64,000 nucleotides of DNA from Euryarchaeota archaeon SM23-78 (GTDB lineage Archaea; Nanobdellota; Nanobdellia; Woesearchaeales; SM23-78): NCBI GenBank assembly GCA_001595785.1, contig LSSJ01000035.1, positions 4,558-68,557 of the forward strand. The letters are read 5' to 3'. Every line of letters starts with the position of its first letter. The stretch's first letter is position 1. Below, in pieces: positions 2,186 through 62,650 of the stretch. The position numbers and the translations under genes are program-made. The notes beneath the pieces were generated by a model. That model saw only the letters and a program-made list of their open reading frames with translations. It did not search any database and was not told the origin of the DNA.

Positions 2186-4309
2186 TCAAAACAAAATCAT
2201 GTATCCTAATGAACGAAGCTTTTGCATTGCATTAGCTTCTTCTTTATCCTGGGCTCTTCCACTTCTCTCAGCGATTTTGCTCTTCTTCACCTCTTTTATT
2301 ATCTTATCAACATTATCTGCCTTACTTTTTACAGGACTGGTACAAGGCATGCATCCAAGACTCCTATATCTTTTACCTTTTTTTGCAAAGTAAAGAGGAT
2401 TAACAGGCAGGTTCTCTCTTTTAATATAATCCCAGATATCTATTTCTGTCCAGTGAAGTAAGGGGTGAACCCTTAGGTGCTGCTCTCCTTCTTTCTGGGT
2501 TTTGAACTGGTCCCAGAGTTCAGGTGGCTGGTCCTTGTAGTCCCATTTAAAATCCCTGTCCCTAGGAGAAAAAACCCTTTCCTTGGCTCTTATGCCATGC
2601 TCATCTCTTCTTATACCTAGGAGTAAGGCTTCGAACTTGTGCTCTGCAATAGTTTTTTTTAGTGCATCTGTTTTTCTTACAGTGCAGCACTCAAGCTTGG
2701 CCTTTGGACCTATACCTTTTTGCTCTGCTTCCTCATAATTCTTTGAAACAATCAAGTTAAGCCCCCACTTCTTAACACACATATCTCTAAACTCATACAT
2801 CTCCTTAAAGTGCAGGCCTGTGTCAATGTATATAACTGGAAAAGGCACTTTGCCATAAAAGGCTTTTTTTGCCAGCCACAACAGAGTGGTTGAATTATGA
2901 CATATTATATCATTTGCAATGAAATTATGTGTGTTTTCTACTTCTAAGTCATATACTTTTCTCATCTTCTTTGGAAGAATCTTAATGTGTTTAACTTTTC
3001 TTGCACTAATTTGATAATTGCTTTTTCCAGCCCAGTTAATTTTAACTTTTCTTAATTTATTAGCTAAATCAGGTACGCCCTTCAGAAAATTTTTTATGCT
3101 TTGCTTTGAAGAGACTATGATTTGATACATTTTCTTACTTTTTGTTCTAAAACCAGAGCCTCTAGCATTAGATACAGAAAATCCATGACTTATTCCTAAT
3201 CTTAGAAGTAATGGCCTTATACTTTCAAGCAAGTTTTTATTAATACTTGAAAAACTAATAGCAAATTTATTATCCTTTCTCCAGCAAGAACCATCGCCTG
3301 CGAAGTACCCTCCTAAAAATAAAGCAAGTTGTTTGTTTGATAAGGTATAAATCCAGCTTGGTATTTTCTTATTTTTACTGAGTCCTTTGAAACCAAGCTT
3401 TTTCAGTTTTGTAACAAGTTTTTTAGAGCAAATCCATACGTCTCCATTCTCTTTTACTAGTACATTAAGATTTTCTTTTCGATTTAGTAGTTCTTCCATT
3501 CTTTTTTTGCTATCATATGCAGACCAGAATGAAACCCCGTGTTTTTTACTTATCTTTTTGGCTAAGTCTAATTTAAGGTTTTTTCTTTTGAAATTTGGGT
3601 GTTCTCTAAGTTCTTTTGCTATTTTTTCTACTATTGGTTTTTCTCGTGGAATTTTTTTCAAGAAACTTAGAATGCCTTTATTCTTTCCCGTAGAAATTAT
3701 GATTTTTCTATCTAATGCATAGCATCCATCTGCTAACCATAGCCCTCCAAGAACTAAAATCCAGTCAGCTACTCCTATGTCATCCACCTTTTTTAAATTC
3801 TTGACATCAAAATTTAAGGTGTTTGCACAGAATATTGAATCTTTTCTAGTTAACCCATAAACTTCAACAGGTTTGAGTGTTAAACCATTCTTATCAGTAT
3901 AGCTTCCTATCAGACTATGATCTCTTGTAACTTTAATGTGTTTATTTGTTTGAAGCTTTATTTCATAAACATCTTTACTAGTGAAGTGTGATATAAGAGT
4001 TGTAACTTTATTGAATTGTATTTTGGCTTTTCTTTGATTTTTTCCATTTACACTAAGAACCTCTACCTTTTCTTTTGGGGTTATGAATTCCTTGTTCCCT
4101 TTTTTAAACACTTCTTTTGGCGTAACTTCTTTATATAGATCTTCAATACAACCCCATTTTAATTTACTGTTTATTTTGTAATAAATCTTACTATCTCCAA
4201 GCACACTATCCTTACCAATACTCCAAAGCATGCCTATCTTTCTGAACTTCTTATAAGCCTCTCTAATAATGTATATGCTCTGGCTCTCTAATTGGTCAAG
4301 ATGATCCAT
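2186..4309 (-). CDS. cysD: sulfate adenylyltransferase subunit 2 precursor, interrupted by an intein
   Basis: The N-extein MDHLDQLESQSIYIIREAYKKF..WSIGKD and the C-extein STTLLWLAKKAFYGKVPFPVIYIDTGLHFKEMYEFRD..RSLGY are colinear with CysD as I recall the E. coli sequence. Rejoined, they restore the PP-loop SIGKDS. Confidence 0.9.
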   Translation of the reverse strand: MDHLDQLESQSIYIIREAYKKFRKIGMLWSIGKDSVLGDSKIYYKINSKLKWGCIEDLYKEVTPKEVFKKGNKEFITPKEKVEVLSVNGKNQRKAKIQFNKVTTLISHFTSKDVYEIKLQTNKHIKVTRDHSLIGSYTDKNGLTLKPVEVYGLTRKDSIFCANTLNFDVKNLKKVDDIGVADWILVLGGLWLADGCYALDRKIIISTGKNKGILSFLKKIPREKPIVEKIAKELREHPNFKRKNLKLDLAKKISKKHGVSFWSAYDSKKRMEELLNRKENLNVLVKENGDVWICSKKLVTKLKKLGFKGLSKNKKIPSWIYTLSNKQLALFLGGYFAGDGSCWRKDNKFAISFSSINKNLLESIRPLLLRLGISHGFSVSNARGSGFRTKSKKMYQIIVSSKQSIKNFLKGVPDLANKLRKVKINWAGKSNYQISARKVKHIKILPKKMRKVYDLEVENTHNFIANDIICHNSTTLLWLAKKAFYGKVPFPVIYIDTGLHFKEMYEFRDMCVKKWGLNLIVSKNYEEAEQKGIGPKAKLECCTVRKTDALKKTIAEHKFEALLLGIRRDEHGIRAKERVFSPRDRDFKWDYKDQPPELWDQFKTQKEGEQHLRVHPLLHWTEIDIWDYIKRENLPVNPLYFAKKGKRYRSLGCMPCTSPVKSKADNVDKIIKEVKKSKIAERSGRAQDKEEANAMQKLRSLGYMILF
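2894..4207 (-). mobile_element. intein (438 aa) with LAGLIDADG homing-endonuclease domain, inserted in the CysD PP-loop
   Basis: Starts SVLGDSKIYY (block A) and has VTRDHSL (block B TxxH). There are two LAGLIDADG motifs, LGGLWLADGCY and LGGYFAGDGSC. It ends VENTHNFIANDIICHN followed by +1 Ser. I verified by reverse-complementing 2881-2920 that HN|S falls at 2894/2893. Confidence 0.85.
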
Positions 4310-10056: not shown

Positions 10057-11562
10057 TTGGTGAGAGTTGAGAGTGAAAGAATATTCCTTAGAAAATTAAC
10101 TTCAAAGGACGCTACTCAGGAATACTGCAACTGGCTCAACGATCCTGTAGTAAACAGATACTTAGAGACCAGAAAGGCAACAATCCAGGACCTCAAAGAC
10201 TATATTAAAGAGAAAAATCATAGTAAGAAGTGTTTGTTCTTAGGAATATTTGACAAGAAAAAAAAGAAACACATAGGCAACCTTAAACTAGAACCTATTG
10301 ATACTAAGAAAAAAAGAGCTACTTTTAGCATAATGATTGGGGACAAGAATTATTGGGGAAAAGGTTTAGGAACAGAAGCTACTGAATTGATAGTTAAATA
10401 TGCATTTAGAAATCTTAATTTAAAAAGGGTTGATTTAGGAGTAATATCTAAAAATAAAAAAGCAATTAAGGTTTATAAGAAGGTTGGTTTTGAAGTTAAA
10501 AGGATAGAGAAGAAGAAACTTAAACATGGCTCTAAATTTTATGACAAAGTTATTATGGAGATAAGAAAGGAAGACTATAGAATTAAATTCTTGATTCTGG
10601 GCTGTGGCTCGATCGGAAGAAGGCATATCAAAAATTTACTTCAATTAGGTTATAAAGACGTAATTGGTTGTGATTCTAATGGACCCTTATTAGAAAGAAT
10701 TCAAAAGGAAATTAACATTAAAACTTCAAGAAATTTTATTGAAAGTCTAAAAAATGTTGATGCTGTTTTGATATGTACCCCGAATCATCTGCATACAAAA
10801 TTTGCAATAAAAGCTTTGAGTGAAAAAAAGCATGTTTTTATAGAAAAGCCTATTGCCCATAAATTGGATAATTTAGAGCAGCTTAAAAGATTTTCTGAAA
10901 AGAACAATCTGGTTGTTCAAGTTGGATGTAATTTAAGATTTCATCCAATTATAAGAAGAACTAAAGAAATTCTAGATAGGAATCAAATCGGAGAGATTTA
11001 CGGAGCAAGAATAGAATATGGTTCTTATCTGCCTGACTGGAGGCCTGGGCAGGATTACACTGAAAACTACGGTGCAAAGAAAAATATGGGTGGGGGCATC
11101 ATATTAGATGATATTCATGAGCTTGATTACACAGCCTGGTTCTTTGGTAAAATAAGATGGGTTTTTTGTTCAGCGAGTAAAATAAGTAATCTGAAAATTA
11201 ATACAGAAGATAATGCTGAAATTCTTTTAAAATCAAACAAGGGGTTTACTATAAACATTCATATGGATTATTTACAAAAACCATCTGTAAGAAAGTTCAA
11301 GATTATAGGGAGTAAGGGCATGATTAAAGGGGATGTCTTTAATAAAGAGTTAATAATTCTAAAAGATAATAAAAAGAATAAAATTCCAATTAAGAAAGAT
11401 TATGACTACAACCAAAGTTATGTGGATGAACTAAAACAATTCATAGATTGTATTGAAAATAATAAAAAACCTTTATGCGGCTATAATGAGGGAAGATATG
11501 CCTTAAAAATTGCTCTGAAAGCAAAAATTTCGGCAGTTAAAAAAGAGGTGGTTAGGTTATGA
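10057..11562 (+). CDS. fusion protein: GNAT N-acetyltransferase (PseH-like) + Gfo/Idh/MocA NAD(P) oxidoreductase
   Basis: Residues 1-172 are GNAT (RIFLRKLTSKDATQEYCNWLNDPVVNRYLE..YWGKGLGTEA). From about residue 175 there is a Rossmann motif, KFLILGCGSIGRRHIKNL. The start is TTG/GTG, 6-9 nt after AGGTGA. Confidence 0.7.
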   Translation: MVRVESERIFLRKLTSKDATQEYCNWLNDPVVNRYLETRKATIQDLKDYIKEKNHSKKCLFLGIFDKKKKKHIGNLKLEPIDTKKKRATFSIMIGDKNYWGKGLGTEATELIVKYAFRNLNLKRVDLGVISKNKKAIKVYKKVGFEVKRIEKKKLKHGSKFYDKVIMEIRKEDYRIKFLILGCGSIGRRHIKNLLQLGYKDVIGCDSNGPLLERIQKEINIKTSRNFIESLKNVDAVLICTPNHLHTKFAIKALSEKKHVFIEKPIAHKLDNLEQLKRFSEKNNLVVQVGCNLRFHPIIRRTKEILDRNQIGEIYGARIEYGSYLPDWRPGQDYTENYGAKKNMGGGIILDDIHELDYTAWFFGKIRWVFCSASKISNLKINTEDNAEILLKSNKGFTINIHMDYLQKPSVRKFKIIGSKGMIKGDVFNKELIILKDNKKNKIPIKKDYDYNQSYVDELKQFIDCIENNKKPLCGYNEGRYALKIALKAKISAVKKEVVRL

Positions 11563-12314
11563 TCCTAGCAATTGTTCAGGCAAGGATGAGTTCTAGGAGG
11601 CTTCCTGGGAAGATACTTAAAGAGATAAAGGGAAAACCTCTAATTTTTTATGTACTTAATCAGGTAAAAAAATCAAAATTAGTTGATAACATTGTTTTAG
11701 CAAGTACCAATAAAGAAAAAGATGCTCTCTTATTAGAAACTGTTAAGAGAGAAGGTTTTGAAACTTTTGCTGGAAGCGAAGATGATGTTTTAGATAGATA
11801 TTATAGAGCCGCAAAAAAATTCCGTGGTGATACCATAGTAAGGGTTACAGGTGACTGTCCTTTAATAGATCCAGAAATTATTGACAAGGTTATCCAGGGT
11901 TTTATTAGTTCTGATTGTGATTATGCAAGTAACATCCACCCTCCTTCTTTTCCAGACGGCCTTGATGTGGAAGTTTTCTCATTTAATGCTCTTAAGAAAG
12001 CGTGGGAAGAAGCAAAATTAAAATCTGAAAGAGAGCACGTAACCCCCTACATCTGGAAGAACAAAGATAAATTCAAAATTGTAAATTTTGTAAATGAAAA
12101 AAATCTTAATAAACTACGTTGGACTGTTGATGAAGAAGAGGATTTTATATTAATAACCAAGATAATAGAAAAACTTGAAGGTTCTGAGATTAATATGAAT
12201 AATGTTCTTGATATATTTAAGAGATACCCTGAGTTAAATGACATAAACAAAAAGTATAAAAGGAATGTTGGATATGCGAGATCTTTAAAAGGGGATTTAA
12301 ATGAAAGCACTTAA
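11559..12314 (+). CDS. SpsF/FlmC-type cytidylyltransferase (CMP-sugar-acid synthetase family)
   Basis: ILAIVQARMSSRRLPGKILKEIKGKPLI..GSEDDVLDRYY..RVTGDCPLIDPEIID. Confidence 0.7.
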   Translation: MILAIVQARMSSRRLPGKILKEIKGKPLIFYVLNQVKKSKLVDNIVLASTNKEKDALLLETVKREGFETFAGSEDDVLDRYYRAAKKFRGDTIVRVTGDCPLIDPEIIDKVIQGFISSDCDYASNIHPPSFPDGLDVEVFSFNALKKAWEEAKLKSEREHVTPYIWKNKDKFKIVNFVNEKNLNKLRWTVDEEEDFILITKIIEKLEGSEINMNNVLDIFKRYPELNDINKKYKRNVGYARSLKGDLNEST

Positions 12315-13599
12315 TACTAACTTCAGAAAGAGTAAATTGTTGCTAAAAAGAGCGAAAAGCATAATTCCCTCGGCAGCACAAACATACAGTAAGAGTTATA
12401 AGTATTTTTGTGAAGGTGCCGCTCCCGCATTTTTAGACTATGGGAAAGGAGGTCATGTATGGGATGTTGACGGCAATGAGTATATTGATTTTGTATGTGC
12501 TCTAGGGCCCGTAACTGTAGGTTATAACGATGAAAGAGTTAACAAAGCCATTATATCTGAGCTTAGGAAAGGACTTTCTTTTACTTTACCAACTGAATTA
12601 GAAATAAAACTTGCAGAAAAACTAATTCAAATAAATCCTTGTGCAGAAATGGTCAAATTTGTTAAAAACGGTTCTGATGCTACTTCAGCAGCTGTAAGAC
12701 TGGCAAGAGCTTACACAAACAGGGAGCTGGTGGCTTGTTGTGGTTATCATGGCTTTCAGGATTGGTATATAGGGTCAACAGAAAATAATTTTGGTGTTCC
12801 TCAAGCTGTTCAAAAATTGACAAAAACTTTTCATTATAACGATATCAAGTCCTTGAAAAAAATATTTGAAAATAATAAGAACAAGATTGCTGCGATTATT
12901 TTGGAACCTTGCCAGAATAATGGTCCAGAGAATAATTTCTTAGAAAATGTAAAAGAGATAACCCATAAAAATGGGGCTGTTCTTATTTTTGATGAAGTTA
13001 TTTCTGGTTTCAGACTGGCTTTGGGAGGAGCCCAAGAGTACTACAAGGTAACACCAGATTTAGCTTCTCTTGGTAAAGGCATGGGAAATGGAGCTTCAAT
13101 ATCCGCAATTGTAGGAAGAAGAGAGATTATGAAGTTGATAGATAAAGGCACTTTTATTTCTACTACTTTTGGAGGAGAAACCTCTGCTTTAGTTGCAGCT
13201 TTGGCTACAATAAAAATATTAGAAAAAAAAAGCTCGTTTAAGCATATATGGAAATTAGGCAACAAATGGAAGAAAGAAATCCAAAAGTTAATTGATAATA
13301 AAAACTTAAACAATGTTGTTGAAGTTGTTGGCTTAGCACCCCATTGTGGTGTGGTATTCAAAGATAAGAGGAACTTATCAAAATTAGATTTGTTTTCAGT
13401 GTACCAACAAACCTTAATTGAGAGAGGAATTTTAAGTATTGGGATAAACAATTTTTGTCTTTCTCATACACAAAAAGATGTAAATACTTTTATTAAAGCT
13501 GCAGATTTAGCTCTTGAAAAGGTTAAGGAAGCCATTAAGGCGAATAGTGTTAAAGGTATCTTAAAAGGAGGTAAATTCCGTCCTGTATTTAGAAGATGA
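12301..13599 (+). CDS. class-III aminotransferase (glutamate-1-semialdehyde aminomutase-like)
   Basis: GSDATSAAVRLARAYT..FDEVISGFRLALGGAQEYYKVTPDLASLGKGMGNG, which includes the PLP lysine. Confidence 0.7.
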   Translation: MKALNTNFRKSKLLLKRAKSIIPSAAQTYSKSYKYFCEGAAPAFLDYGKGGHVWDVDGNEYIDFVCALGPVTVGYNDERVNKAIISELRKGLSFTLPTELEIKLAEKLIQINPCAEMVKFVKNGSDATSAAVRLARAYTNRELVACCGYHGFQDWYIGSTENNFGVPQAVQKLTKTFHYNDIKSLKKIFENNKNKIAAIILEPCQNNGPENNFLENVKEITHKNGAVLIFDEVISGFRLALGGAQEYYKVTPDLASLGKGMGNGASISAIVGRREIMKLIDKGTFISTTFGGETSALVAALATIKILEKKSSFKHIWKLGNKWKKEIQKLIDNKNLNNVVEVVGLAPHCGVVFKDKRNLSKLDLFSVYQQTLIERGILSIGINNFCLSHTQKDVNTFIKAADLALEKVKEAIKANSVKGILKGGKFRPVFRR

Positions 13600-14684
13600 A
13601 AAACTCAAAAAGAAACATAATCAAAATCGGAAATAGAATAATCGGAAACAATCACCCCTGTTTCATAATAGCTGAAGCAGGAGCAAACTGGAAATACTGT
13701 GATGATATGAAAAAGAATTTTAAACATGCCTTACGCTTGATTGATATTGCAGCTAAAGCCAAGGCAGATTGTGTTAAGTTCCAAATTTATAGAGCAAGTA
13801 GAATGTACAATGAGATGAAGTCAGGTTACATTAAATACCTAGGAAAAAAAGAAAAAGTGTTTCAAACAATAAAAAAACTAGAGGTGCCTTACGACTGGCT
13901 TTCAAAATTAAAAAAATACTGTGATAATAGAGGCATACTATTTTTAGCAACACCTTTTGATGAAGAATCTGCCGATGAGTTAGATAGGGTTGGTGTGAAA
14001 GCTTTTAAAATAGCTTCTTACACAATAACACACATCCCCTTATTGAGGCATATTGCAAAAAAAAAGAAACCAATAATTCTATCTACAGGGGGCTCTAATG
14101 AAAAAGAGGTAGAAGAAGCGATAAAGGCAGTCAGAGCTGCTGGCAATAACGAGATAATATTAATGCAATGTACTGCAAGTTATCCTGCACCTCTTGAAAG
14201 CATAAATCTCAGAGTAATACCTGCATTGAAGAATAGATTTAAGATTCCTGTTGGCTTATCAGACCACTCACGAGAACCTTTTATAGCGCCTCTTGGTGCT
14301 GTTGCATTAGGTGCCAATGCTTATGAGGTTCACTACACTACAGATAATAAACTAGAAGGCCCTGACCATGGTTTTGCTATTCTTCCTCATGAGTTAGAGC
14401 AGGTTGTTAAGAGCATAAGGGGCATGGAAAAGGCTTTGGGAAGCGGATTAAAAGTCATGCAAAAACAAGAGGCACTTACAACCAGCTTTTGTAGGAGAAG
14501 TATCTATGTTAAGAGAGACATAAAAAAAGGTAAAAAATTAACTAAAGAAAATATTCACATTGTGAGGCATGGTGAGGATAGAGGAGGTCTGTTACCCAAG
14601 TATTTTGATGAAATTCTTGGAAAAAAAGCAAGAAGAAATTTAAAAAAAGATGAGGCATTACAATTTAAAGATGTGGAATTATAA
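13596..14684 (+). CDS. nonulosonic acid synthase, NeuB/PseI/SpsE family (copy 1)
   Basis: IIGNNHPCFIIAEAGANW..ADCVKFQ..LSDHS, plus a C-terminal SAF-like domain. Confidence 0.8.
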   Translation: MKNSKRNIIKIGNRIIGNNHPCFIIAEAGANWKYCDDMKKNFKHALRLIDIAAKAKADCVKFQIYRASRMYNEMKSGYIKYLGKKEKVFQTIKKLEVPYDWLSKLKKYCDNRGILFLATPFDEESADELDRVGVKAFKIASYTITHIPLLRHIAKKKKPIILSTGGSNEKEVEEAIKAVRAAGNNEIILMQCTASYPAPLESINLRVIPALKNRFKIPVGLSDHSREPFIAPLGAVALGANAYEVHYTTDNKLEGPDHGFAILPHELEQVVKSIRGMEKALGSGLKVMQKQEALTTSFCRRSIYVKRDIKKGKKLTKENIHIVRHGEDRGGLLPKYFDEILGKKARRNLKKDEALQFKDVEL

Positions 14685-27500: not shown

Positions 27501-28235
27501 TCACTCATTAAAATAATACTCTTTATCCCTTTCTTTCTGAAGCCTCTTTATTATGGTCTCTGCAATCCACCAATCTTTTTTATCATGAATATCAATGCTT
27601 GACAAGGCATCATGGTTTTCCAGTATCCACACATTATCTCCGAGCCTAACTCCTTTTTCCAAGAGTATCTTTGGTTTGGTAGCAGACGCTATTCCTGTGT
27701 CCTCTCTATACCACCAACCCTTGTCCTTTTGCCTAGGAGTATGTTCTTTGGTCTGTCTTATCCTGACCAGCTTACCTTTCTCATCATAATGCCAGTACTT
27801 TTTATGCGTTGGATTAACTGCAAAAGCTGAGTCTTTCTTTGGGTTGTCAATAAGTTTTTTAACACAAGCATCAATCATCCCTCTTCTTTTAAAAGGGTCT
27901 GTTACTTGCAGATAAACAAGAATATCAATATCATAATTTTCATTCTCTTTTAACCAATTAATGGCATGTAAAAGAACTGCTTCGCTTGTTGCCAGGTCTG
28001 TAGAGTGCTCAGCAGGTCTTATAAAAGGCACTTCTGCTCCTGCTTTTTTTGCAACCTTTGCTATCTCTTTATCATCTGTAGAAACAATAACCCTGTCTAC
28101 GAGTTTTGCATCTAAAGCTGCTTTTACAGTGTAGTACAAAAGAGGTTTGCCTCCAATTGGAAGAATATTCTTCCGTGCTATTCCTTTTGAACCCCCTCTC
28201 GCAGGGATTATTGCAACAACATTCTTTTTTTTCAT
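27501..28235 (-). CDS. neuA: N-acylneuraminate (nonulosonate) cytidylyltransferase
   Basis: VVAIIPARGGSKGIARKNILPIGGKPLLYYTV..VIVSTDD..RPAEHSTDLATSE. Confidence 0.8.
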   Translation of the reverse strand: MKKKNVVAIIPARGGSKGIARKNILPIGGKPLLYYTVKAALDAKLVDRVIVSTDDKEIAKVAKKAGAEVPFIRPAEHSTDLATSEAVLLHAINWLKENENYDIDILVYLQVTDPFKRRGMIDACVKKLIDNPKKDSAFAVNPTHKKYWHYDEKGKLVRIRQTKEHTPRQKDKGWWYREDTGIASATKPKILLEKGVRLGDNVWILENHDALSSIDIHDKKDWWIAETIIKRLQKERDKEYYFNE

Positions 28236-28237
28236 CT

Positions 28238-28906
28238 TTACTTATGAAGTTTGTGGTCTTCAATTACTCTGACTACCCTATCACATCTCTTAACATCTCC
28301 TGCTTGGTTAATTCCATGAGGGTGGTATACACTGGCGCTTGGTTCATAAATAATCTTATATCCTTGTTCTAACACTTTTTTTGCCCAGAGCCTATCCTCA
28401 ACACCAGAGATTTTTTCGTCAAAAGGTATTTTTTTCCATACACTTCTTCTGATTTTTGCATTTGCATTATGAAAAAAAGGATCAGTTGTTTGTTCTTTCC
28501 TCTCCAATCCAAAGGTGTTCCATAAATCCCTTTTGTCCCTGGGATCACTATGAGCCATGGGTTCTTGTCTGCCATACACGCCTGCAACCTTTGGATCCTC
28601 AAAATTGGTGAGCAGTCTGAACAACCAATTGGTGTTTTTGGGTATGCAATGAGCAGAAAGAAAGGCTAAGTATTCTCCTTTAGAGGCTTGGATTCCTTGG
28701 TTCAGGGCTCTGCCATAACTGAATTCTTTATTAGATATTTTTATTATTTTACAATTAAATTCTTTGGCTATCTCAAGGGTTTTATCTGTTGATTCATTAT
28801 CAACCAGAATAATCTCAAAATCAACAAAGTCCTGTTTAGATACTGCATAAAGGCATTGCCTAATCCATTCTTCCTCATTTTTAGACCTTATAATAACTGA
28901 TATCAT
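28238..28906 (-). CDS. family-2 glycosyltransferase
   Basis: MISVIIRSKNEEEWI..EIILVDNESTDKT. I moved the start to 28906. The 11 upstream codons of the listed ORF are the repeated leader read in another frame. Confidence 0.75.
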   Translation of the reverse strand: MISVIIRSKNEEEWIRQCLYAVSKQDFVDFEIILVDNESTDKTLEIAKEFNCKIIKISNKEFSYGRALNQGIQASKGEYLAFLSAHCIPKNTNWLFRLLTNFEDPKVAGVYGRQEPMAHSDPRDKRDLWNTFGLERKEQTTDPFFHNANAKIRRSVWKKIPFDEKISGVEDRLWAKKVLEQGYKIIYEPSASVYHPHGINQAGDVKRCDRVVRVIEDHKLHK

Positions 28907-28965
28907 AATTTCACCTCCAGAGAAATTATGGTATTGCAAAAATTTTCAATTTTAGCAATTATCAT
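28903..28965 (-). CDS. 20-aa mini-ORF MIIAKIENFCNTIISLEVKL (leader cassette copy 2)
   Basis: Its ATG overlaps the NeuB2 stop (ATGA) and its TGA overlaps the GT2 ATG (ATGA). It shares a 58-nt perfectly identical core with 51874..51931, running into the first bases of the downstream gene. Confidence 0.5.
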   Translation of the reverse strand: MIIAKIENFCNTIISLEVKL

Positions 28966-30068
28966 AATTTCACCATTCCAAAGGTGATGTGGGTGTCAGC
29001 CTCAATATCCTGCATTGCTGGTTTCCCTATTAGTTCAGGAATCATTTTTGGGGGAAGCCCTCTGTTAGGTCCCTTTGTTGTGAGCATTTCTCGTGTTATC
29101 TTTTCCCCTTTTTTTATCTCTTTTGCTGCAACTATGGTTCTTCTTTTTTCATCAAAGATTTTTAGTTCGCCTGGAAGCACCTCTCTTTCTTGCTTTGACC
29201 ATTGAAGGCCTTTTTCTACTTTTCTTATGTTTCTTACTAATTTCTTTAATCCGTGTGGTTCAAGACTCATTGCATGGTCAAGGCCTGGGAGCGCTCTATT
29301 AATAGTATAATGCTTCTCTATCACTCTTGCTCCTAGGGCAACAGCCACAGGACCAAAGGTTATACCGTTCTCATGGTCACTGAATCCAACAGGCTTACCA
29401 AACTTTTTTAACCACTGAATCCATTGCAGGTTTGCATCCTCTGCTCTCATAGGATAACTTGAAACACAATGCAGAAGCACAACATCATATCCTTCCAGAA
29501 CCTCAAGAGCGTCTTTTACTTCTTGTTCAGTTGCCATTCCTACTGACATGATTATAGTTTTATTTGTCTTTGCTAATTCTTCTAATACAGGGATATCTGT
29601 TAATGTAAAGGCTGCTACTTTATACGCATCCACCCCTAGTTTTTCAAGAAATCTTACACTAGGAATGTCAAAAGGGGTTACTATAAAATCAATTTTTCCT
29701 TTGCAGTACTCTTTTAATTTTTTAAATTCTTCCCAGCTCAGTTCTATGTGTTCTCTTACCTTTCTATAAGTATCTCCCCACTCAGGAACATTGGTAAACA
29801 CCCTATCAAGCCTGTCTTTGGTAAGCATAGAATCAATATCTCTTTTCTGAAATTTAACAGCATCACAGCCAGCCTCAATGGCTACATCTATGAGCTTATA
29901 ACCCTTTTCTAATTCTCCGTTATGATTATTGCCTGCTTCGCCTATCACATAGGTGTGGCTTTCAGGTATTTCTTTAAACCCATTAACAATACTAACCCTT
30001 GTTTTCCTTGATTTTCTTGGACGACTCCTAGCCATAATACCCCTCTTAATTCTTATTAATCCTACCAA
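28962..30068 (-). CDS. neuB: nonulosonic acid synthase, NeuB family (copy 2)
   Basis: HTYVIGEAGNNHNGELEKGYKLIDVAIEAGCDAVKFQ..FSDHENG, plus a C-terminal SAF domain. The start may be Met12 (30035). Confidence 0.8.
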   Translation of the reverse strand: MVGLIRIKRGIMARSRPRKSRKTRVSIVNGFKEIPESHTYVIGEAGNNHNGELEKGYKLIDVAIEAGCDAVKFQKRDIDSMLTKDRLDRVFTNVPEWGDTYRKVREHIELSWEEFKKLKEYCKGKIDFIVTPFDIPSVRFLEKLGVDAYKVAAFTLTDIPVLEELAKTNKTIIMSVGMATEQEVKDALEVLEGYDVVLLHCVSSYPMRAEDANLQWIQWLKKFGKPVGFSDHENGITFGPVAVALGARVIEKHYTINRALPGLDHAMSLEPHGLKKLVRNIRKVEKGLQWSKQEREVLPGELKIFDEKRRTIVAAKEIKKGEKITREMLTTKGPNRGLPPKMIPELIGKPAMQDIEADTHITFGMVKL

Positions 30069-38788: not shown

Positions 38789-38967
38789 TTTTCGCCCGCT
38801 CGCTACGTTCGCTCCCCAAAGCCAGCAAAAGCAAAGCTTTTGCGGTGCCAGAAATTGCATTTCTGAGCACTTGCAAAAGGCAAGCGGTTACAAAAAGCCA
38901 AAGGCTTTTTGAATGTTCAAATCAAAATTTGAATATTCCTAGCACAAAAACGTGCCGGAACCCCTTA
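38789..38967 (+). repeat. left arm of an approximately 180-bp inverted repeat (multi-hairpin intergenic module)
   Basis: Near-identical blocks are shared with the reverse complement of 47450..47632: 35 nt at 38876..38910, 33 nt at 38935..38967, and a 25-nt GC box at 38789..38813. Confidence 0.8.
38892..38910 (+). terminator. hairpin plus T5 run (aaaaagcc-aaa-ggcttttt), candidate aglB terminator
   Basis: 8-bp stem followed by oligo-T, 107 nt downstream of the aglB stop. Archaeal termination at oligo-T is established; its use here is inferred. Confidence 0.35.
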
Positions 38968-38974
38968 GAAAAAA

Positions 38975-47440: not shown

Positions 47441-47449
47441 GTCCCCTTA

Positions 47450-47632
47450 TAAGGGGTTCCGGCACGTTTTTGTGCTAGGAATGTTCAAATTTTAATTTGA
47501 AAATTAAAAAAGCCTTTGGCTTTTTGTAACCGCTTGCCTTTAGTCAAGTCTCAAAAATGCTTTGCATTTTTGGACTCCCAAAAGCACAGCTTTTGATGAG
47601 TTTTAAAAGCGAACGAAGTGAGCGGGCGAAAA
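47450..47632 (-). repeat. right arm of the approximately 180-bp inverted repeat
   Basis: It is the reverse complement of 38789..38967. Identical blocks lie at 47507..47541 and 47450..47482, and the GC box lies at 47608..47632. Confidence 0.8.
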
Positions 47633-51446: not shown

Positions 51447-51857
51447 ATGAATAAAATGGAGCAAAAAGTTATTAATGCGCATGGTAAGAGGAAAAGAGCA
51501 GTTGCAAGAGCTACTCTAAGTCCTGGCACTGGCATTGTTAGGATTAATGATGTAGAGTTGGATAGTTATAAGCCAAGGATTTACAGGTTAAGAATTAGAG
51601 AGCCTTTATTGTTATCAGGAGAAATAGCTAATCATGTGGATATAAAAGTGAATGTTGTTGGTGGAGGCCTTTCGAGCCAGACAGATGCTGCAAGACTAGC
51701 AATTGCAAAGGTATTAGCAGATTACAGTCCCAGGTTAAAGAAGGTCTTCCTTGATTATGACAGGCAGCTTCTTGTTGCTGATGTTCGACGTAAGGAAATG
51801 GCAAAGCCGAATAGGCATGGGCAGGCTCGGAGTCGTAGACAAAAAAGCTATAGATGA
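51447..51857 (+). CDS. rps9: 30S ribosomal protein uS9
   Basis: GKRKRAVARATL..VNVVGGGLSSQTDAARLAIAKVL..RQKSYR C-terminus. Confidence 0.9.
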   Translation: MNKMEQKVINAHGKRKRAVARATLSPGTGIVRINDVELDSYKPRIYRLRIREPLLLSGEIANHVDIKVNVVGGGLSSQTDAARLAIAKVLADYSPRLKKVFLDYDRQLLVADVRRKEMAKPNRHGQARSRRQKSYR

Positions 51858-51866
51858 GGAGGTGGA

Positions 51867-51932
51867 ATGATGATTATTGCTAAAATTGAAAATTTTTGCA
51901 ATACCATAATTTCTCTGGAGGTGAAATTATGA
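51867..51932 (+). CDS. 21-aa mini-ORF MMIIAKIENFCNTIISLEVKL (leader cassette copy 1)
   Basis: Preceded by GGAGGTG. Its TGA overlaps the rpoN ATG (ATGA). The peptide is identical to the one at 28903..28965. Confidence 0.5.
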   Translation: MMIIAKIENFCNTIISLEVKL

Positions 51933-52126
51933 TTATACCAATCAGATGTTTTTCATGCAACAAACCAGTAGCTCATTTATGGGAGGAGTATGTTGAAAGA
52001 GTAAAGAAAGGCGAGGATAAAAAAGAGGTTCTTGACAAGCTAGGATTAGAGAGGTATTGTTGCAGAGCACTATTTTTAGGACATGTTGATTTGCTGGATA
52101 TGGCTACTCAGTTTAAGAAGTTCTAG
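51929..52126 (+). CDS. rpoN: DNA-directed RNA polymerase subunit N (Rpo10)
   Basis: MIIPIRCFSCNKPVAHLWEEY..LERYCCRALFLGHVDL. I moved the start to 51929. Confidence 0.9.
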   Translation: MIIPIRCFSCNKPVAHLWEEYVERVKKGEDKKEVLDKLGLERYCCRALFLGHVDLLDMATQFKKF

Positions 52127-55879: not shown

Positions 55880-58800
55880 ATGGCCAAAGAACCTAAACCA
55901 GGAACTAAACTGCCTAATTTCAAGGCTATTGCTGAGAAATGGCAGAAGAAATGGGCAGATAAGAAGATATTTAGGGTAGTTGAGAATCCGAACAAAAAGA
56001 AATACTACGTATTAGAGATGTATCCTTATCCTTCTTCATATGGCTTGCACATGGGTCATGCTAGGAACTATACTATTGGTGATGTATTTGCTCGTTTTAA
56101 GAGGATGAATGGCTTTAACGTGCTTTACCCTATGGGCTATGATTCTTTTGGTCTTCCTGCTGAGAATGCTGCTATTAAGGCTAAATCTCATCCTAAGATT
56201 TTCACTGAAAAAGCCATTGAAAACTTTGTTAAGCAGCAGAAAGCCCTTGGTTTAAGCTATGACTGGGATAGAATGATTTACTCTCATGACCCTGGTTTCT
56301 ATAAGTGGGATCAATGGGTTTTTCTTAAGATGTTTGAAAAAGGCCTTGCTTTTAAGAGAAAGGCTGCTGTTAATTGGTGCCCTAAGTGTAAAACAGTTTT
56401 GGCTAATGAGCAGGTCCATGGAAGTATGTGCTGGGCTCATACAGACACCCCTGTTGAAATAAAGGATTTGAATCAATGGTTCTTTAAGATTACTGATTAT
56501 GCAGAAGAGCTTCTTAAGGATATTGACAAACTTAAGAACTGGCAAGAGGATGTTAAGCTTATGCAAAAGAACTGGATTGGTAAAAGTCATGGTACCCTAA
56601 TAGAGTTTCAGATTGAAGGTTCTGATAAAAAGTTCAGTGTTTTTACCACAAGACCAGACACTCTATGGGGAATTACTTTCTTAGTGTATGCTCCTGAACA
56701 TCCTGATGTTATGGAGTTAGTTAAAGGAACAGAGTATAGGGGTAAGGTTAAGAAGTTTGTTCAAAAAGTATTGCTACAGGACAGGTTTGAAAGAACTGCT
56801 GAGAACAAAGAAAAAGAGGGCGTGTTCATAGGTAGATTTGCTATTCATCCTGTTACAAAGGAAAAAATACCCATATATATTGCTAATTTTGTGCTTTATG
56901 AGTATGGCACTGGTGCAATCATTGCTGTGCCTGCTCATGACCAGCGTGATTTTGAGTTTGCAAAGAAGTACAAGATTCCAATAAAAGTAGTTATTAATCC
57001 TGCTATGTTTGACCTTAGTCCTGATAAGATGACCAGGGCTTACATGGGAGACGGTAACATGATTAATTCTGAGCAGTTCAATGGCATGAACAACAGAGAC
57101 GCAATACCAGATATTAACAAGTTTTTAGAAAAGAACAAATGGGGTAAGGTAACTGTTCAGTACAAACTAAGGGATTGGTTGATAAGCAGGCAGAGGTTCT
57201 GGGGCTGCCCAATACCAGTTATATATTGTGATAAATGCGGTAAAGAAGATGTTCTTATGTTGCATGGCTGGGAAGACACATCTAAAGCTGGTTTTATCCC
57301 TGAGTTTGTTAAAGATTTGAAAACTAAAGGTTACAAGGCTTATGCTTATGACCAGCCTAACACAGACGCACCAAAGTTTAATGAATGGTTTAGTTTTGCA
57401 GAAAATAAGATTAAAGGCCTTAACAATAATAATATGAGTATTGTTGGCCACAGCATGGGTGGCTTGCTTGCTTTAAAACTTGCTGAGAAATATAAGGTTA
57501 AGAAATTAGTGCTTGTTGCTCCTGTTGGAACAAGGCCTTCAAAAAAATATTATGATGTTACTTGCAAAGAGCTCGGACAGGATGAACTAAATGTTTTCAA
57601 GAACTATATGGACAGAGACATTGATGTTGAAAAGATAAAAAAGAATGCTAAGAAAATAATTTTTATTTTTGGGAAAAAAGACCCTTGGATTAATGAGGAG
57701 ATAAGAAATTCTTATATCTCTAGGTTCAAAGATGTTGCTGATATTCATCTATTGGATTATGGTCACATGGCTGAGAGTGAAAATTTTAAGAAACTTACAG
57801 AATTAGAAAACCTGTTTTCAAAAGAAGGTATTAAAACAATTCCTGTGCCTGAAAAAGACTTGCCTGTAAAACTGCCTGAAGATGTCAAGTTTGATGCTTC
57901 TGGTGGTAATCCCCTTGCAAAGATTGAAGCATTTGTTAATACCAAGTGTCCTAGGTGCGGCGGAGAAGCTAGGAGAGAAACAGATACCATGGATACCTTT
58001 GTTGACTCTGCTTGGTACTTTTTAAGGTACTGTGATCCAAAGAATAACAAAGTGATTTTTGATAAAAAGAAAGTAAAGTACTGGATGCCCATAGATACTT
58101 ATATTGGTGGTAAAGAGCATGCAACTATGCACCTTATTTATTTTAGATTTTATTGCAAGTTCTTAAGAGACCTTGGCTTGTTAGAGTTTGATGAACCCAC
58201 CCTTCACTTGTTTAATCAGGGTATGCTATGCAAAGGCGGTGTTAAGATGAGCAAGAGCAAGGGCAATGTGGTGACCCAAGAAGAAATTGAGAATAATTAT
58301 GGTATTGACACTGCACGCTTTTTCCTTGTTTTTGTTGCTAGTCCTGATAAGGATATGGAGTGGGATGACCAGGCAGTTGAGGGCTCTTATAGATTCCTTG
58401 TGAAGGTTTATGACATGCTTACTAATAAGAAGATTGTTAATAAGGTTATTAAGAATCAGGAGAGCAAGACCCATAAAACCATTCTTGAGGTTACTGATTA
58501 TATATCTTCTTTCAAGTACAATCTTGCTCTTATTAGTATTATGAAGTTTGCGAATTATCTTTACACTAAAGACGAGATAAGTAACAGTGCTGCAAACAAC
58601 TTGTTATTATTACTCTCACCTTTTGCTCCTCACCTTGCAGAGGAATTATGGGAAAAATTGGGTAATAGAGGTTTTATTAGTCTTGAAAAATGGCCTGTTG
58701 GTGATAAGCAGAAGATTGATGAGAAGGTAGAGGCAGCTGAAGAGTTATATATAAAGGTAAGAAAAGATATTCTTGCATTACAAGAGTTAACTGGCTTGAC

Positions 58801-59158
58801 CAAGCCTAGTAAAGTAGTGCTTATTATTGCTAATACTTGGAAATACGAGTTTATTACTAATCTGAAGAAGGAGATAGAGAAAACAAGGGATGTTGGTAAA
58901 TTAATAAAAGTACTTAGTGCAAAAGATAAAACCCATAGTAAATTAATTGCAAATTTTGTTCCAAAATTTGTGAAGAACCCTGATAAGATACCAGAGGTTG
59001 TAATATCTCAGCAGGATGAAAAGAAAGCTCTTGGTGATTTTGTTGTTGAGCTAGAAAAAGAGTTTAAGACCAAGTTTGAAATAACGCTTGAGAAGGATTC
59101 AAAGCATGATAAAGCCAAGAATGCCTTGCCTGGTAAACCAGCTATTGTTTTTACATAA
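55880..59158 (+). CDS. leuS: leucyl-tRNA synthetase (bacterial-like architecture) carrying an internal alpha/beta-hydrolase domain
   Basis: HMGH (res 57-60), CP1 TTRPDT (256-261), NWIGKS, RETDTMDTFVDSAWYFLRY and VKMSKSKGN. Confidence 0.9.
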   Translation: MAKEPKPGTKLPNFKAIAEKWQKKWADKKIFRVVENPNKKKYYVLEMYPYPSSYGLHMGHARNYTIGDVFARFKRMNGFNVLYPMGYDSFGLPAENAAIKAKSHPKIFTEKAIENFVKQQKALGLSYDWDRMIYSHDPGFYKWDQWVFLKMFEKGLAFKRKAAVNWCPKCKTVLANEQVHGSMCWAHTDTPVEIKDLNQWFFKITDYAEELLKDIDKLKNWQEDVKLMQKNWIGKSHGTLIEFQIEGSDKKFSVFTTRPDTLWGITFLVYAPEHPDVMELVKGTEYRGKVKKFVQKVLLQDRFERTAENKEKEGVFIGRFAIHPVTKEKIPIYIANFVLYEYGTGAIIAVPAHDQRDFEFAKKYKIPIKVVINPAMFDLSPDKMTRAYMGDGNMINSEQFNGMNNRDAIPDINKFLEKNKWGKVTVQYKLRDWLISRQRFWGCPIPVIYCDKCGKEDVLMLHGWEDTSKAGFIPEFVKDLKTKGYKAYAYDQPNTDAPKFNEWFSFAENKIKGLNNNNMSIVGHSMGGLLALKLAEKYKVKKLVLVAPVGTRPSKKYYDVTCKELGQDELNVFKNYMDRDIDVEKIKKNAKKIIFIFGKKDPWINEEIRNSYISRFKDVADIHLLDYGHMAESENFKKLTELENLFSKEGIKTIPVPEKDLPVKLPEDVKFDASGGNPLAKIEAFVNTKCPRCGGEARRETDTMDTFVDSAWYFLRYCDPKNNKVIFDKKKVKYWMPIDTYIGGKEHATMHLIYFRFYCKFLRDLGLLEFDEPTLHLFNQGMLCKGGVKMSKSKGNVVTQEEIENNYGIDTARFFLVFVASPDKDMEWDDQAVEGSYRFLVKVYDMLTNKKIVNKVIKNQESKTHKTILEVTDYISSFKYNLALISIMKFANYLYTKDEISNSAANNLLLLLSPFAPHLAEELWEKLGNRGFISLEKWPVGDKQKIDEKVEAAEELYIKVRKDILALQELTGLTKPSKVVLIIANTWKYEFITNLKKEIEKTRDVGKLIKVLSAKDKTHSKLIANFVPKFVKNPDKIPEVVISQQDEKKALGDFVVELEKEFKTKFEITLEKDSKHDKAKNALPGKPAIVFT
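57242..57838 (+). other. inserted serine-hydrolase (alpha/beta fold, YdeN/RBBP9-like) domain within LeuRS
   Basis: LMLHGW; GHSMGG (Ser525); GKKDPW (Asp601); YGHM (His629). The insertion lies between CDKCG and TIPVPEKDLPVKLPEDV. Confidence 0.7.
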
Positions 59159-62341: not shown

Positions 62342-62365
62342 TCACATAAATAAGAATTTTATTAA

Positions 62366-62628
62366 ATGCGCGCCTGGAGGTGGATAAGCTGAATAAGCAT
62401 TAGCTTACCCCATTCTTTCCTCCGCTCCGCAACCCTCAAAGCACCCTTGCCTAAGCTTAGGGCTGCTCTGTTCCCAGCCTGACCCGGTTCACAAAGATAA
62501 GAGCCAATGAGGACAAAGCATCGACGGTCCGAACAGGACTAATACTTAAGGAGCAAACCGCCCCCCAGGCTTCGGCCCCCACAATATCCATTTTGGGTAA
62601 CAGGCGAGGATAAGCCGCCCGGCCTAGC
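62366..62628 (-). ncRNA. signal recognition particle RNA (7S/SRP RNA); ends approximate
   Basis: The minus strand reads GGGUCAGGCUGGGAACAGAGCAGCCC, which is the helix-8 signature (AGG loop, GGAA tetraloop, AGCA loop). It is a GC-rich island of about 260 nt with a T-run at the 3' end. Confidence 0.75.
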
Positions 62629-62650
62629 AGAGGAGAGGAAGAATTGGTTA

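Follow-up and report, generated by a model that had tools for sequence, protein, structure and literature searches.

Co-directional genes that overlap by the four nucleotides ATGA were found in reporter work, both in an archaeon and in E. coli, to be tightly coupled by termination-reinitiation (Huber et al., 2019, PMC6728339; Huber et al., 2023, PMC10666635). An intergenic distance of about 20 nt almost abolishes this coupling, and in E. coli the upstream gene's last 15 nt were shown to be sufficient for reinitiation (PMC10666635). Here we describe a 59-bp insertion that carries such an overlap and occurs at two gene starts in a 64,000-nt stretch of the genome of Euryarchaeota archaeon SM23-78; this whole stretch is hereafter called the window, and all coordinates are positions in it unless another contig is named. 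Locus 1 is situated between the genes of ribosomal protein S9 and RpoN (plus strand), and locus 2 between the genes of a NeuB-family synthase and a GT2 glycosyltransferase (minus strand).

Other known systems are also relevant. In classical translational coupling, translation of an upstream open reading frame (uORF) or a leader peptide melts a hairpin and unmasks a structured start site. Miniature inverted-repeat transposable elements (MITEs), repetitive extragenic palindromes and the mosaic elements built of them (REP/BIME), IS200/IS605-derived elements and Rickettsia palindromic elements are short, hairpin-forming repeats found at unrelated loci. Template-switch (quasi-palindrome, or snap-back) insertions consist largely of an inverted copy of the adjacent sequence together with its direct duplication.

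The 58-mer ATTGCTAAAATTGAAAATTTTTGCAATACCATAATTTCTCTGGAGGTGAAATTATGAT is present in the window in two exact copies with 0 mismatches, at 51876-51933 (+) and 28902-28959 (-), while the chance expectation from 100 shuffles is none. The first-pass annotation, made from the letters of this DNA, had reported a perfect 58-nt identity at two opposite-strand loci preceding unrelated genes; an exact search bore this out, its coordinates being 2 nt off, and the downstream genes are indeed unrelated (PF01194 at locus 1, PF00535 at locus 2). The similarity between the two copies reaches beyond the 58-mer in the upstream direction, to 73 nt at 96%. In both copies an ATG located 5 nt after GGTG opens an identical 20-aa open reading frame (ORF), MIIAKIENFCNTIISLEVKL, the TGA of which overlaps the downstream ATG as ATGA, and thus the mini-ORF with its own Shine-Dalgarno (SD) sequence and ATGA overlap, described in the same annotation, was confirmed at both loci by reading of the ORFs. 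At locus 1 an additional in-frame ATG at 51867, one codon upstream, would extend the product to 21 aa.

Co-directional ORFs with a 4-nt stop/start overlap, as in the gene pairs cited above, are found at locus 1 and, at locus 2, at both ends of the mini-ORF; the SD is contained in the final codons of the upstream ORF, and what is duplicated measures 15 nt, the length sufficient in E. coli. In contrast to those pairs, the upstream ORF is here not a gene but a 20-codon ORF made by an insertion, locus 2 chains two junctions (NeuB to mini-ORF and mini-ORF to GT2), and the junction at locus 1 is an imported one, the original site being a 12-nt spacer without overlap; the coupling at these sites is thus a putative one.

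Since both loci are empty in relatives, the feature is a 59-bp insertion. The S9/RpoN spacer comprises 71 nt in the window vs 12 nt (TAA AAAGGTGATAAT ATGATA) in three related lineages (L009, L010-L013 and L028), whose S9 is 81-83% identical to that of the window; the difference is 59. In L016 and L017, the closest relatives by NeuB (65-67% identical), the NeuB and GT2 genes share a 4-nt stop/start overlap with nothing between them, and in the relative P0131 they are fused into one gene. The layout of locus 2 is GGTGAAATTATGATA, a 44-nt core and again GGTGAAATTATGATA, i.e., a perfect direct repeat of 15 nt (15/15) with a period of 59 nt. The NeuB proteins of the relatives (n=11) have C-termini of the form ...MV[KQRE][LIFM] or ...MIKW, a longer form being ...HITF[GS]MV[KQ][LIF] with the stop; the duplicated 15-mer is native to the NeuB/GT2 junction. 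As the 15-mer is native at locus 2, the SD, the ATGA overlap and the C-terminal VKL of the peptide with its stop codon are that NeuB-stop/GT2-start junction present a second time.

Of the two repeats at locus 1, the native one on the left reads GGAGGTGGAATGATGATTAT and the one on the right GGAGGTGAAATTATGATTAT. Compared with the native GGTGGAATGATGAT, the right repeat (GGTGAAATTATGAT) carries the locus-2 bases at both positions that distinguish the two native sites, being of the locus-2 type (17/20). Therefore the flanking repeat of locus 1 was not duplicated from locus-1 sequence, and an origin at locus 2, or at a locus-2-like site, with subsequent copying to locus 1 is the most likely order of events. 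The parts of the two loci and the genes adjoining them are as follows.

51447-51857, plus strand: gene of ribosomal protein S9 (PF00380), the upstream neighbour, with its TGA at 51855-51857; 100% match to S9 of 'Euryarchaeota archaeon SM23-78'
51858-51877, plus strand: native SD and start of rpoN (GGAGGTG GAATG ATGATTAT), now SD and start of the mini-ORF; left, imperfect direct repeat; the orthologous empty sites of relatives read AAAGGTGATAATATGATA
51876-51934, plus strand: 59-bp insertion, composed of the 44-bp core (51876-51919) and the element-borne junction copy GGTGAAATTATGATT; its 58-mer equals that of locus 2
51870-51932, plus strand: mini-ORF (putative relay uORF), 20 codons and a TGA (51930-51932) that overlaps the rpoN ATG (51929-51931)
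51876-51902, plus strand: predicted hairpin 1, near-palindromic over 27 nt, its 11 Watson-Crick pairs being interrupted by one T-T mismatch and closed by the loop GAA; fold -4.6 kcal/mol
51905-51931, plus strand: predicted hairpin 2, CATAATTTC pairing with GAAATTATG; the loop holds GGAGG and the 3' arm the AUG of rpoN; fold -7.3 kcal/mol
51917-51936, plus strand: element-borne SD and start (GGAGGTG AAATT ATGATTAT), now SD and start of rpoN; right direct repeat, in the version of the locus-2 junction (AAATT, not GAATG)
51929-52126, plus strand: rpoN, encoding RNA polymerase subunit N (called as a 65-aa product, which matches PF01194)
28962-30068, minus strand: NeuB-family sialic/nonulosonic acid synthase (PF03102 and PF08666), the upstream neighbour, ending in ...HITFGMVKL and a TGA (28964-28962) that overlaps the mini-ORF ATG
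28960-28974, minus strand: native NeuB-stop/GT2-start junction GGTGAAATTATGATA, left direct repeat; in the relative L016, where the ATGA overlap of NeuB and GT2 is uninterrupted, the sequence there is GGAATGGTGAAAATATGATT
28901-28959, minus strand: 59-bp insertion, composed of the 44-bp core (28916-28959) and the perfect second GGTGAAATTATGATA (28901-28915); absent from L016 and L017
28903-28965, minus strand: mini-ORF copy 2, 20 codons and TGA, with ATGA overlaps at both ends (NeuB stop/mini-ORF start and mini-ORF stop/GT2 start)
28238-28906, minus strand: GT2 glycosyltransferase (PF00535), beginning MISVIIRSKNEE with the ATG at 28906; its N-terminus MISVIIRSKN is kept in L016

The product of the gene downstream of locus 1, called RpoN at first reading, is the archaeal RNA polymerase subunit N and not sigma-54; the gene follows that of S9 in a ribosomal-protein/RNA-polymerase operon. 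Some gene callers start at a TTG inside the element, which adds the N-terminal extension MQYHNFSGGEIM. In another related lineage (L029/L030, 1003-1102) the S9-RpoN spacer is 100 nt long, unrelated and very AT-rich, and in L014/L015 the S9 gene is not followed by rpoN; among these archaea, the junction thus varies to an unusual degree.

The window is archaeal, since it carries an archaeal signal recognition particle RNA (62362-62634); its GC content is 35%, and the nearest relatives of its S9 protein, with identities of at most 83%, bear the labels Woesearchaeota or Nanoarchaeota. Not one base of the locus-1 junction differs in JGI 3300027901, JGI 3300027888, ENA ERZ27275860 and ENA ERZ27275859, and the locus-2 junction is identical in ENA ERZ27275860. 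In SRR6208352 there are two Logan contigs, one per locus, both of which end exactly 30 nt into the shared sequence, as would be expected of an assembly graph with k=31 that branches where a repeat truly has two copies. An assembly or chimera artefact affecting one of the copies, an objection raised along with the first description of the repeat, is thus rejected: the junctions recur in independent assemblies made by different assemblers, and the unitigs break where a true repeat predicts. All sampled assemblies are at least 99.94% identical to the window and represent a single clonal population of a DPANN-like archaeon; for this reason the presence of the insert in every one of them is hardly informative about selection.

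The two native junctions resemble each other: about 12-13 of 15 bases match between S9/RpoN and NeuB/GT2, and this is the sole such place in the region. The motif GGTG-N5-ATGAT is found 4 times in the 64 kb vs 0.34 expected, namely at the two native junctions and in the two inserted copies, and it is not found in about 16 kb of extra flank taken from other assemblies; in relatives it is present, and unoccupied, at both orthologous junctions. The longest target duplication consistent with both loci is the 6-nt ATGATW (ATGATT / ATGATA). By its sequence context, the occupancy of these two sites would fit either copying via short homology or a site-specific mobile process.

As to the make-up of the insert, the 44-bp core reads ATTGCTAAAATTGAAAATTTTTGCAATACCATAATTTCTCTGGA. 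The two hairpins that had been proposed for it are predicted indeed, and the 62-nt segment 51870-51931 folds with -13.9 kcal/mol (z = -3.3, 0 of 200 shuffles being as stable). The quality of hairpin 1 is equalled in 0.03% of random window 44-mers and in 0.1% of shuffled cores (P about 0.0003-0.001 for its 11-pair stem), and CATAATTTC, the 5' arm of hairpin 2, repeats exactly and in inverted form the 9 nt GAAATTATG of the junction (P about 0.003-0.009). The core of locus 2 makes, together with the native junction, a 50-nt near-palindrome with arms agreeing at 21 of 24 positions, and CAUAAUUUC is able to pair with either copy of the junction, which gives alternative structures. Altogether, the 59 inserted bases consist of about 15 nt without identified source, 23 nt of inverted copy of the preceding sequence, a 6-nt linker and 15 nt of direct junction copy. 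Judging from these sequences, such an inverted-copy pattern would be that expected of a snap-back or template-switch error, and it would explain both hairpins without function. The insert shares with known template-switch insertions the inverted copy of adjacent sequence and its direct duplication; it differs from them in that no template was found for the 15-nt seed of its palindrome and in that the event is not reconstructable from two identical copies. Descent of the core from a diverged tandem duplicate of the NeuB 3' end was considered and rejected, the global alignment score being reached by 690 of 2000 shuffles. The search for a template of the core elsewhere in the window gave nothing significant; the best match, of 13 nt (58295-58307, E about 0.03-0.05), was taken as chance.

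We therefore lean, at slightly better than even chances, towards a single origin of this lineage-specific 59-bp insertion with subsequent copying into another site, which would make it a mutational accident rather than an evolved regulatory leader. From the anatomy of the two loci, the insertion would have arisen between NeuB and GT2, where the junction GGTGAAATTATGATA, comprising the SD, the terminal NeuB codons and the ATGA stop/start overlap, came to stand on either side of 44 bp of new sequence. Of these 44 bp, about 23 would be an inverted copy of the 24 bp to the left (part of the junction and the first 12 nt of the core), and a snap-back or template-switch error of replication or repair could have produced in this way hairpin 1, hairpin 2 and the 50-nt near-palindrome of locus 2. 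Then, as the diagnostic bases suggest, the same 59 bp would have been copied into the S9/RpoN junction, the other GGTG-N5-ATGAT site, by ectopic gene conversion or illegitimate recombination using the short SD-ATGAT homology.

The insert brings its own SD and ATG, which would leave the genes translatable. Its length puts the TGA of the ATGA in frame (59 = 3n-1), and so the 20-codon ORF opened by the old ATG ends exactly on the new start codon. Ribosomes could reach the downstream gene by three routes: they could initiate de novo at GGAGGTGA, the copied SD, which is longer; they could terminate at the ATGA and reinitiate there; or, on their way through the mini-ORF, they would unwind hairpin 2, in which the start codon is otherwise paired. 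The relay would run from NeuB through the mini-ORF to GT2 at locus 2 and, at locus 1, from S9 or a de novo start through the mini-ORF to RpoN. At locus 2, the mini-ORF would span a 59-nt gap between NeuB and GT2 that otherwise should break their coupling. A bare 59-nt insertion would presumably have left GT2 uncoupled from NeuB and the frame of the old rpoN start running over the new one; insertions devoid of these properties would not have survived before an essential gene. The mini-ORF and the hairpins would, on this view, be by-products of the way in which the insertion came about. We consider that the mini-ORF probably relays or unmasks translation, and the host is one that routinely uses SD-led starts and ATGA overlaps, since SD-like motifs precede 35 of 59 genes of the window vs 9% of control positions, and seven other ATGA overlaps are found in it.

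The first-pass annotation had gone further and interpreted the repeat as a mobile or duplicated translational-coupling module. What stands of this is that the unit is duplicated and carries an SD, a start codon and an ATGA overlap; that it is a designed leader does not stand, its junction having been copied from NeuB/GT2. The suggestion that a ribosome translating the mini-ORF crosses hairpin 2 and terminates on the downstream start codon is supported by the position of this hairpin wholly within the mini-ORF. Hairpin 2 itself, which had been counted as part of the leader, is predicted, but as an inverted copy of the native junction it fits the way in which the insertion was made.

Several points weigh against a copied accident. 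The count of two copies covers about 80 kb of genome, and many further copies would make a dedicated mobility mechanism likelier. The order from locus 2 to locus 1 rests on two diagnostic bases and the perfect locus-2 repeat, so that a third, locus-2-like source is possible, and one transposon-like description, a 53-bp element with a 6-bp ATGATW duplication, fits both sites. The first 15 nt of the core (ATTGCTAAAATTGAA) are left unexplained, and the core resembles neither the NeuB 3' end nor any other sequence of the window. It is also an assumption that in this organism as little as 5-15 nt of homology would suffice for recombination, and the translational consequences are deduced from the arrangement of the parts. 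If the accident did happen as supposed, nature has made at the two loci a small experiment on how operons evolve: even an essential gene could tolerate an insertion right on its start codon by virtue of a duplicated ribosome-binding-site/stop-start junction and a relay ORF that keeps the coupling, and the 15-nt junction would be transferable between unrelated operons, in agreement with the experiments in which the last 15 nt sufficed for reinitiation. The case is not one to open a long-standing question.

The alternative that survives best, though we regard it as rather unlikely and as less likely than a copied accident, is a miniature non-autonomous mobile element, for instance one of 53 bp with the 6-bp duplication ATGATW, which targets SD-ATGAT starts and whose own SD regenerates the displaced start. 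It would account for the occupancy of both GGTG-N5-ATGAT sites in about 80 kb, for the single set of boundaries that fits both loci with a 6-bp duplication, and for copies that are 100% identical and hairpin-forming; besides, the 15-bp duplication at locus 2 agrees in length with that reported of casposon integration. However, the putative ends of such an element (ATTGCT... and ...GAAATT) share at most 4 nt and there are no terminal inverted repeats, its 3' end is identical to sequence native to locus 2, a match that in a foreign element would require coincidence or homology-guided targeting, and neither transposase nor integrase nor Cas1 domains were found among the window proteins examined (by Pfam scans and precomputed annotations). 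The 58-mer and its core have just two copies in about 80 kb of genome (the window and about 16 kb of extra flank), with no third copy in the flank. Nor was the insert, or any related sequence, found in 185,579 reference genomes, a metagenome collection, a viral collection, phages or plasmids; these reference, metagenome and viral collections lack the source organism and are thus uninformative on the copy number within the genome. The module had been termed portable at first reading; with these counts, mobility is not shown.

Like the miniature and palindromic elements introduced above, the insert is flanked by direct repeats and tolerated beside or inside coding sequence; it differs from them in the lack of terminal inverted repeats (in inverted orientation, no more than 4 nt are common to its ends ATTGCTAAA... 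and ...GGTGAAATT, and its palindromes are internal, which sets it apart from MITEs), in having two known copies, in a locus-1 flanking repeat that is apparently no true target duplication, and in the lack of a cognate transposase among the window proteins examined. Particular families were also considered and rejected. IS200/IS605-type elements insert 3' of a specific 4-5-nt target without duplicating it and carry subterminal hairpins; in the case of an IS200/IS605-derived palindromic element or a REP, the hairpins are present, but at least 6 nt (ATGATT / ATGATA) are duplicated at both sites, the differing base included. Casposon integration proceeds by a Cas1-family integrase, with terminal inverted repeats and a target duplication of 14-15 bp; here a 15-bp duplication is found at locus 2 only, there are no terminal inverted repeats, and no Cas1 occurs among the window proteins examined. 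An integron attC site, known as the 59-base element, has RYYYAAC ... GTTRRRY core sites at the ends of an imperfect palindrome; the 58-mer contains neither GTT nor AAC on the plus strand, hence no core site on either strand, and the shared length of 59 is a coincidence. Phage or plasmid origin was rejected as well, all matches being of chance level (26-32 nt).

The more definite proposal of a new miniature mobile element of about 53-59 bp, homing to SD-N5-ATGAT starts, bringing its own SD and start codon and turning the displaced start into that of a relay ORF, seems to us somewhat less probable again. An element that never silences its target gene could spread even into essential genes such as rpoN, and many copies at other gene starts would be expected of it; the value of the finding would increase markedly only if such copies occurred at other start sites of this genome.

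That the insert is a selected regulatory leader, in which the mini-ORF and hairpin 2 act as a translational switch tuning RpoN and GT2 and were kept or co-opted after the duplication, is in our opinion improbable; in the same reading, attenuation of transcription may come from hairpin 1 or from the T5 tract. A predicted hairpin of -7.3 kcal/mol, placed wholly inside the uORF, does enclose the start codon with part of the SD, the z-score of the 62-nt fold and the alternative pairings of CAUAAUUUC with either junction copy at locus 2 are what a switch might show, and the insertion is fixed in every assembly of the population. On the other hand, both loci are empty in all relatives compared, the inverted-copy origin accounts for the hairpins, there is no sequence variation for tests of covariation or codon-level selection, the near-identity of the sampled genomes deprives the fixation of most of its meaning, and RpoN and a glycosyltransferase have no evident reason for common regulation. 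As in regulatory uORFs and leader peptides, the downstream start codon is paired in a hairpin traversed by a short ORF, the translation of which would open the site; in contrast to them, conservation is here confined to one clonal population, no stalling or sensing motif is recognisable, and the arm of the hairpin repeats the flank in inverted form, as would fit an origin by mutation. A palindromic operator common to other promoters was rejected, TTGC-N13-21-GCAA occurring 17 times vs 14.7 expected, and the search for a bacterial-type promoter or terminator in the element, with a tool that does not cover archaeal promoters, gave nothing above background.

Very little speaks for the 20-aa peptide as a functional small protein in two copies, which had been the second suggestion of the first-pass annotation. 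Both loci do have an open frame with an SD-led start and encode the identical peptide; however, 24-44% of random 44-mers or cores of this composition are open over this length (times about one third for the phase), and the C-terminal VKL with its stop is copied from NeuB. The two copies are identical in nucleotides and, being without a substitution pattern, give no information on selection; nothing shows selection on the peptide, the open frame or the hairpins. The relatives lack the ORF, their sites being empty, and a tblastn search found no other copy of the peptide in the window or in any of the loci compared with it. The codon-degenerate scan with GCNAARATHGARAAYTTYTGYAAYAC (AKIENFCNT) gave 1 match in the genomes, 2 in the metagenomes and 0 in the viral contigs, all of them by chance and in unrelated contexts (one in a metagenome-assembled genome of Nostocaceae, two in unrelated metagenome contigs), and a conserved family of leader peptides or small proteins was rejected, no homologues at the amino-acid level being found in these three sets.

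Archaeal C/D box small RNAs possess a C box RUGAUGA, a D box CUGA and guides of about 12 nt. Least credible of all, together with the artefact rejected above, is such a known small RNA: sub-threshold Rfam C/D-box matches do overlap 51862-51910 (the best with 14-16 bits vs thresholds of 30-45) and AUGAUGA at 51867-51873 agrees with the C-box consensus, but Rfam matches as a whole reach 10-19 bits vs thresholds of 30-112 (E about 0.1-9), the C-box-like heptamer belongs to the native flank of locus 1 only (AUUAUGA at locus 2), and no CUGA is found in the element, which reads CUGG.

Locus 2 is surrounded by a large glycan-synthesis island, where the NeuB-family synthase gene is followed by that of the GT2 glycosyltransferase and then by a cytidylyltransferase gene. 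The island occupies about 35 kb and includes formyltransferases, an aminotransferase, a flippase, several glycosyltransferases, a 991-aa STT3/AglB protein and two NeuB-family synthases (13596-14684, plus strand, and 28962-30068, minus strand), which are mutually just 35% identical and each have their own cytidylyltransferase (11559-12314 and 27501-28235). This small-genome archaeon thus appears to have two nonulosonic-acid pathways.

A second repeat of about 185 nt was found in intergenic regions of the window at 38789-38970 (+) and 47447-47632 (-), inverted, 84-89% identical and 8.5 kb apart. The first of its copies ends just upstream of a GT2 gene (start 38975), and the second points, across about 260 nt, to a methyltransferase gene on the minus strand (start 47188). 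The repeat folds into approximately five stem-loops; the pairing of one stem is kept through four two-sided changes and that of another through one. The comparison with Rfam gave no family match (best E about 0.4), and the two copies could be a pair of unannotated structured RNAs or a common leader.

Three more genes deserve mention. The gene at 2186-4309 (minus strand) encodes a 707-aa protein of the phosphoadenosine phosphosulfate (PAPS) reductase family and contains an intein, since Intein_splicing and LAGLIDADG_3 domains are present in it (precomputed Pfam matches of the identical contig L020). The 1092-aa class I aminoacyl-tRNA synthetase encoded at 55880-59158 (plus strand) has alpha/beta-hydrolase matches (Hydrolase_4, and a weak one to Abhydrolase_1) between its tRNA-synt_1 matches, which may reflect a domain insertion. 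Finally, about 2.3-3.1 kb past the 3' end of the window, on contig L024 of the same genome (2908-3711), a metallo-beta-lactamase-fold protein with a precomputed match to Anti-Pycsar Apyc1 (PF23023) is encoded next to a nucleotidyltransferase (Polbeta) pair.

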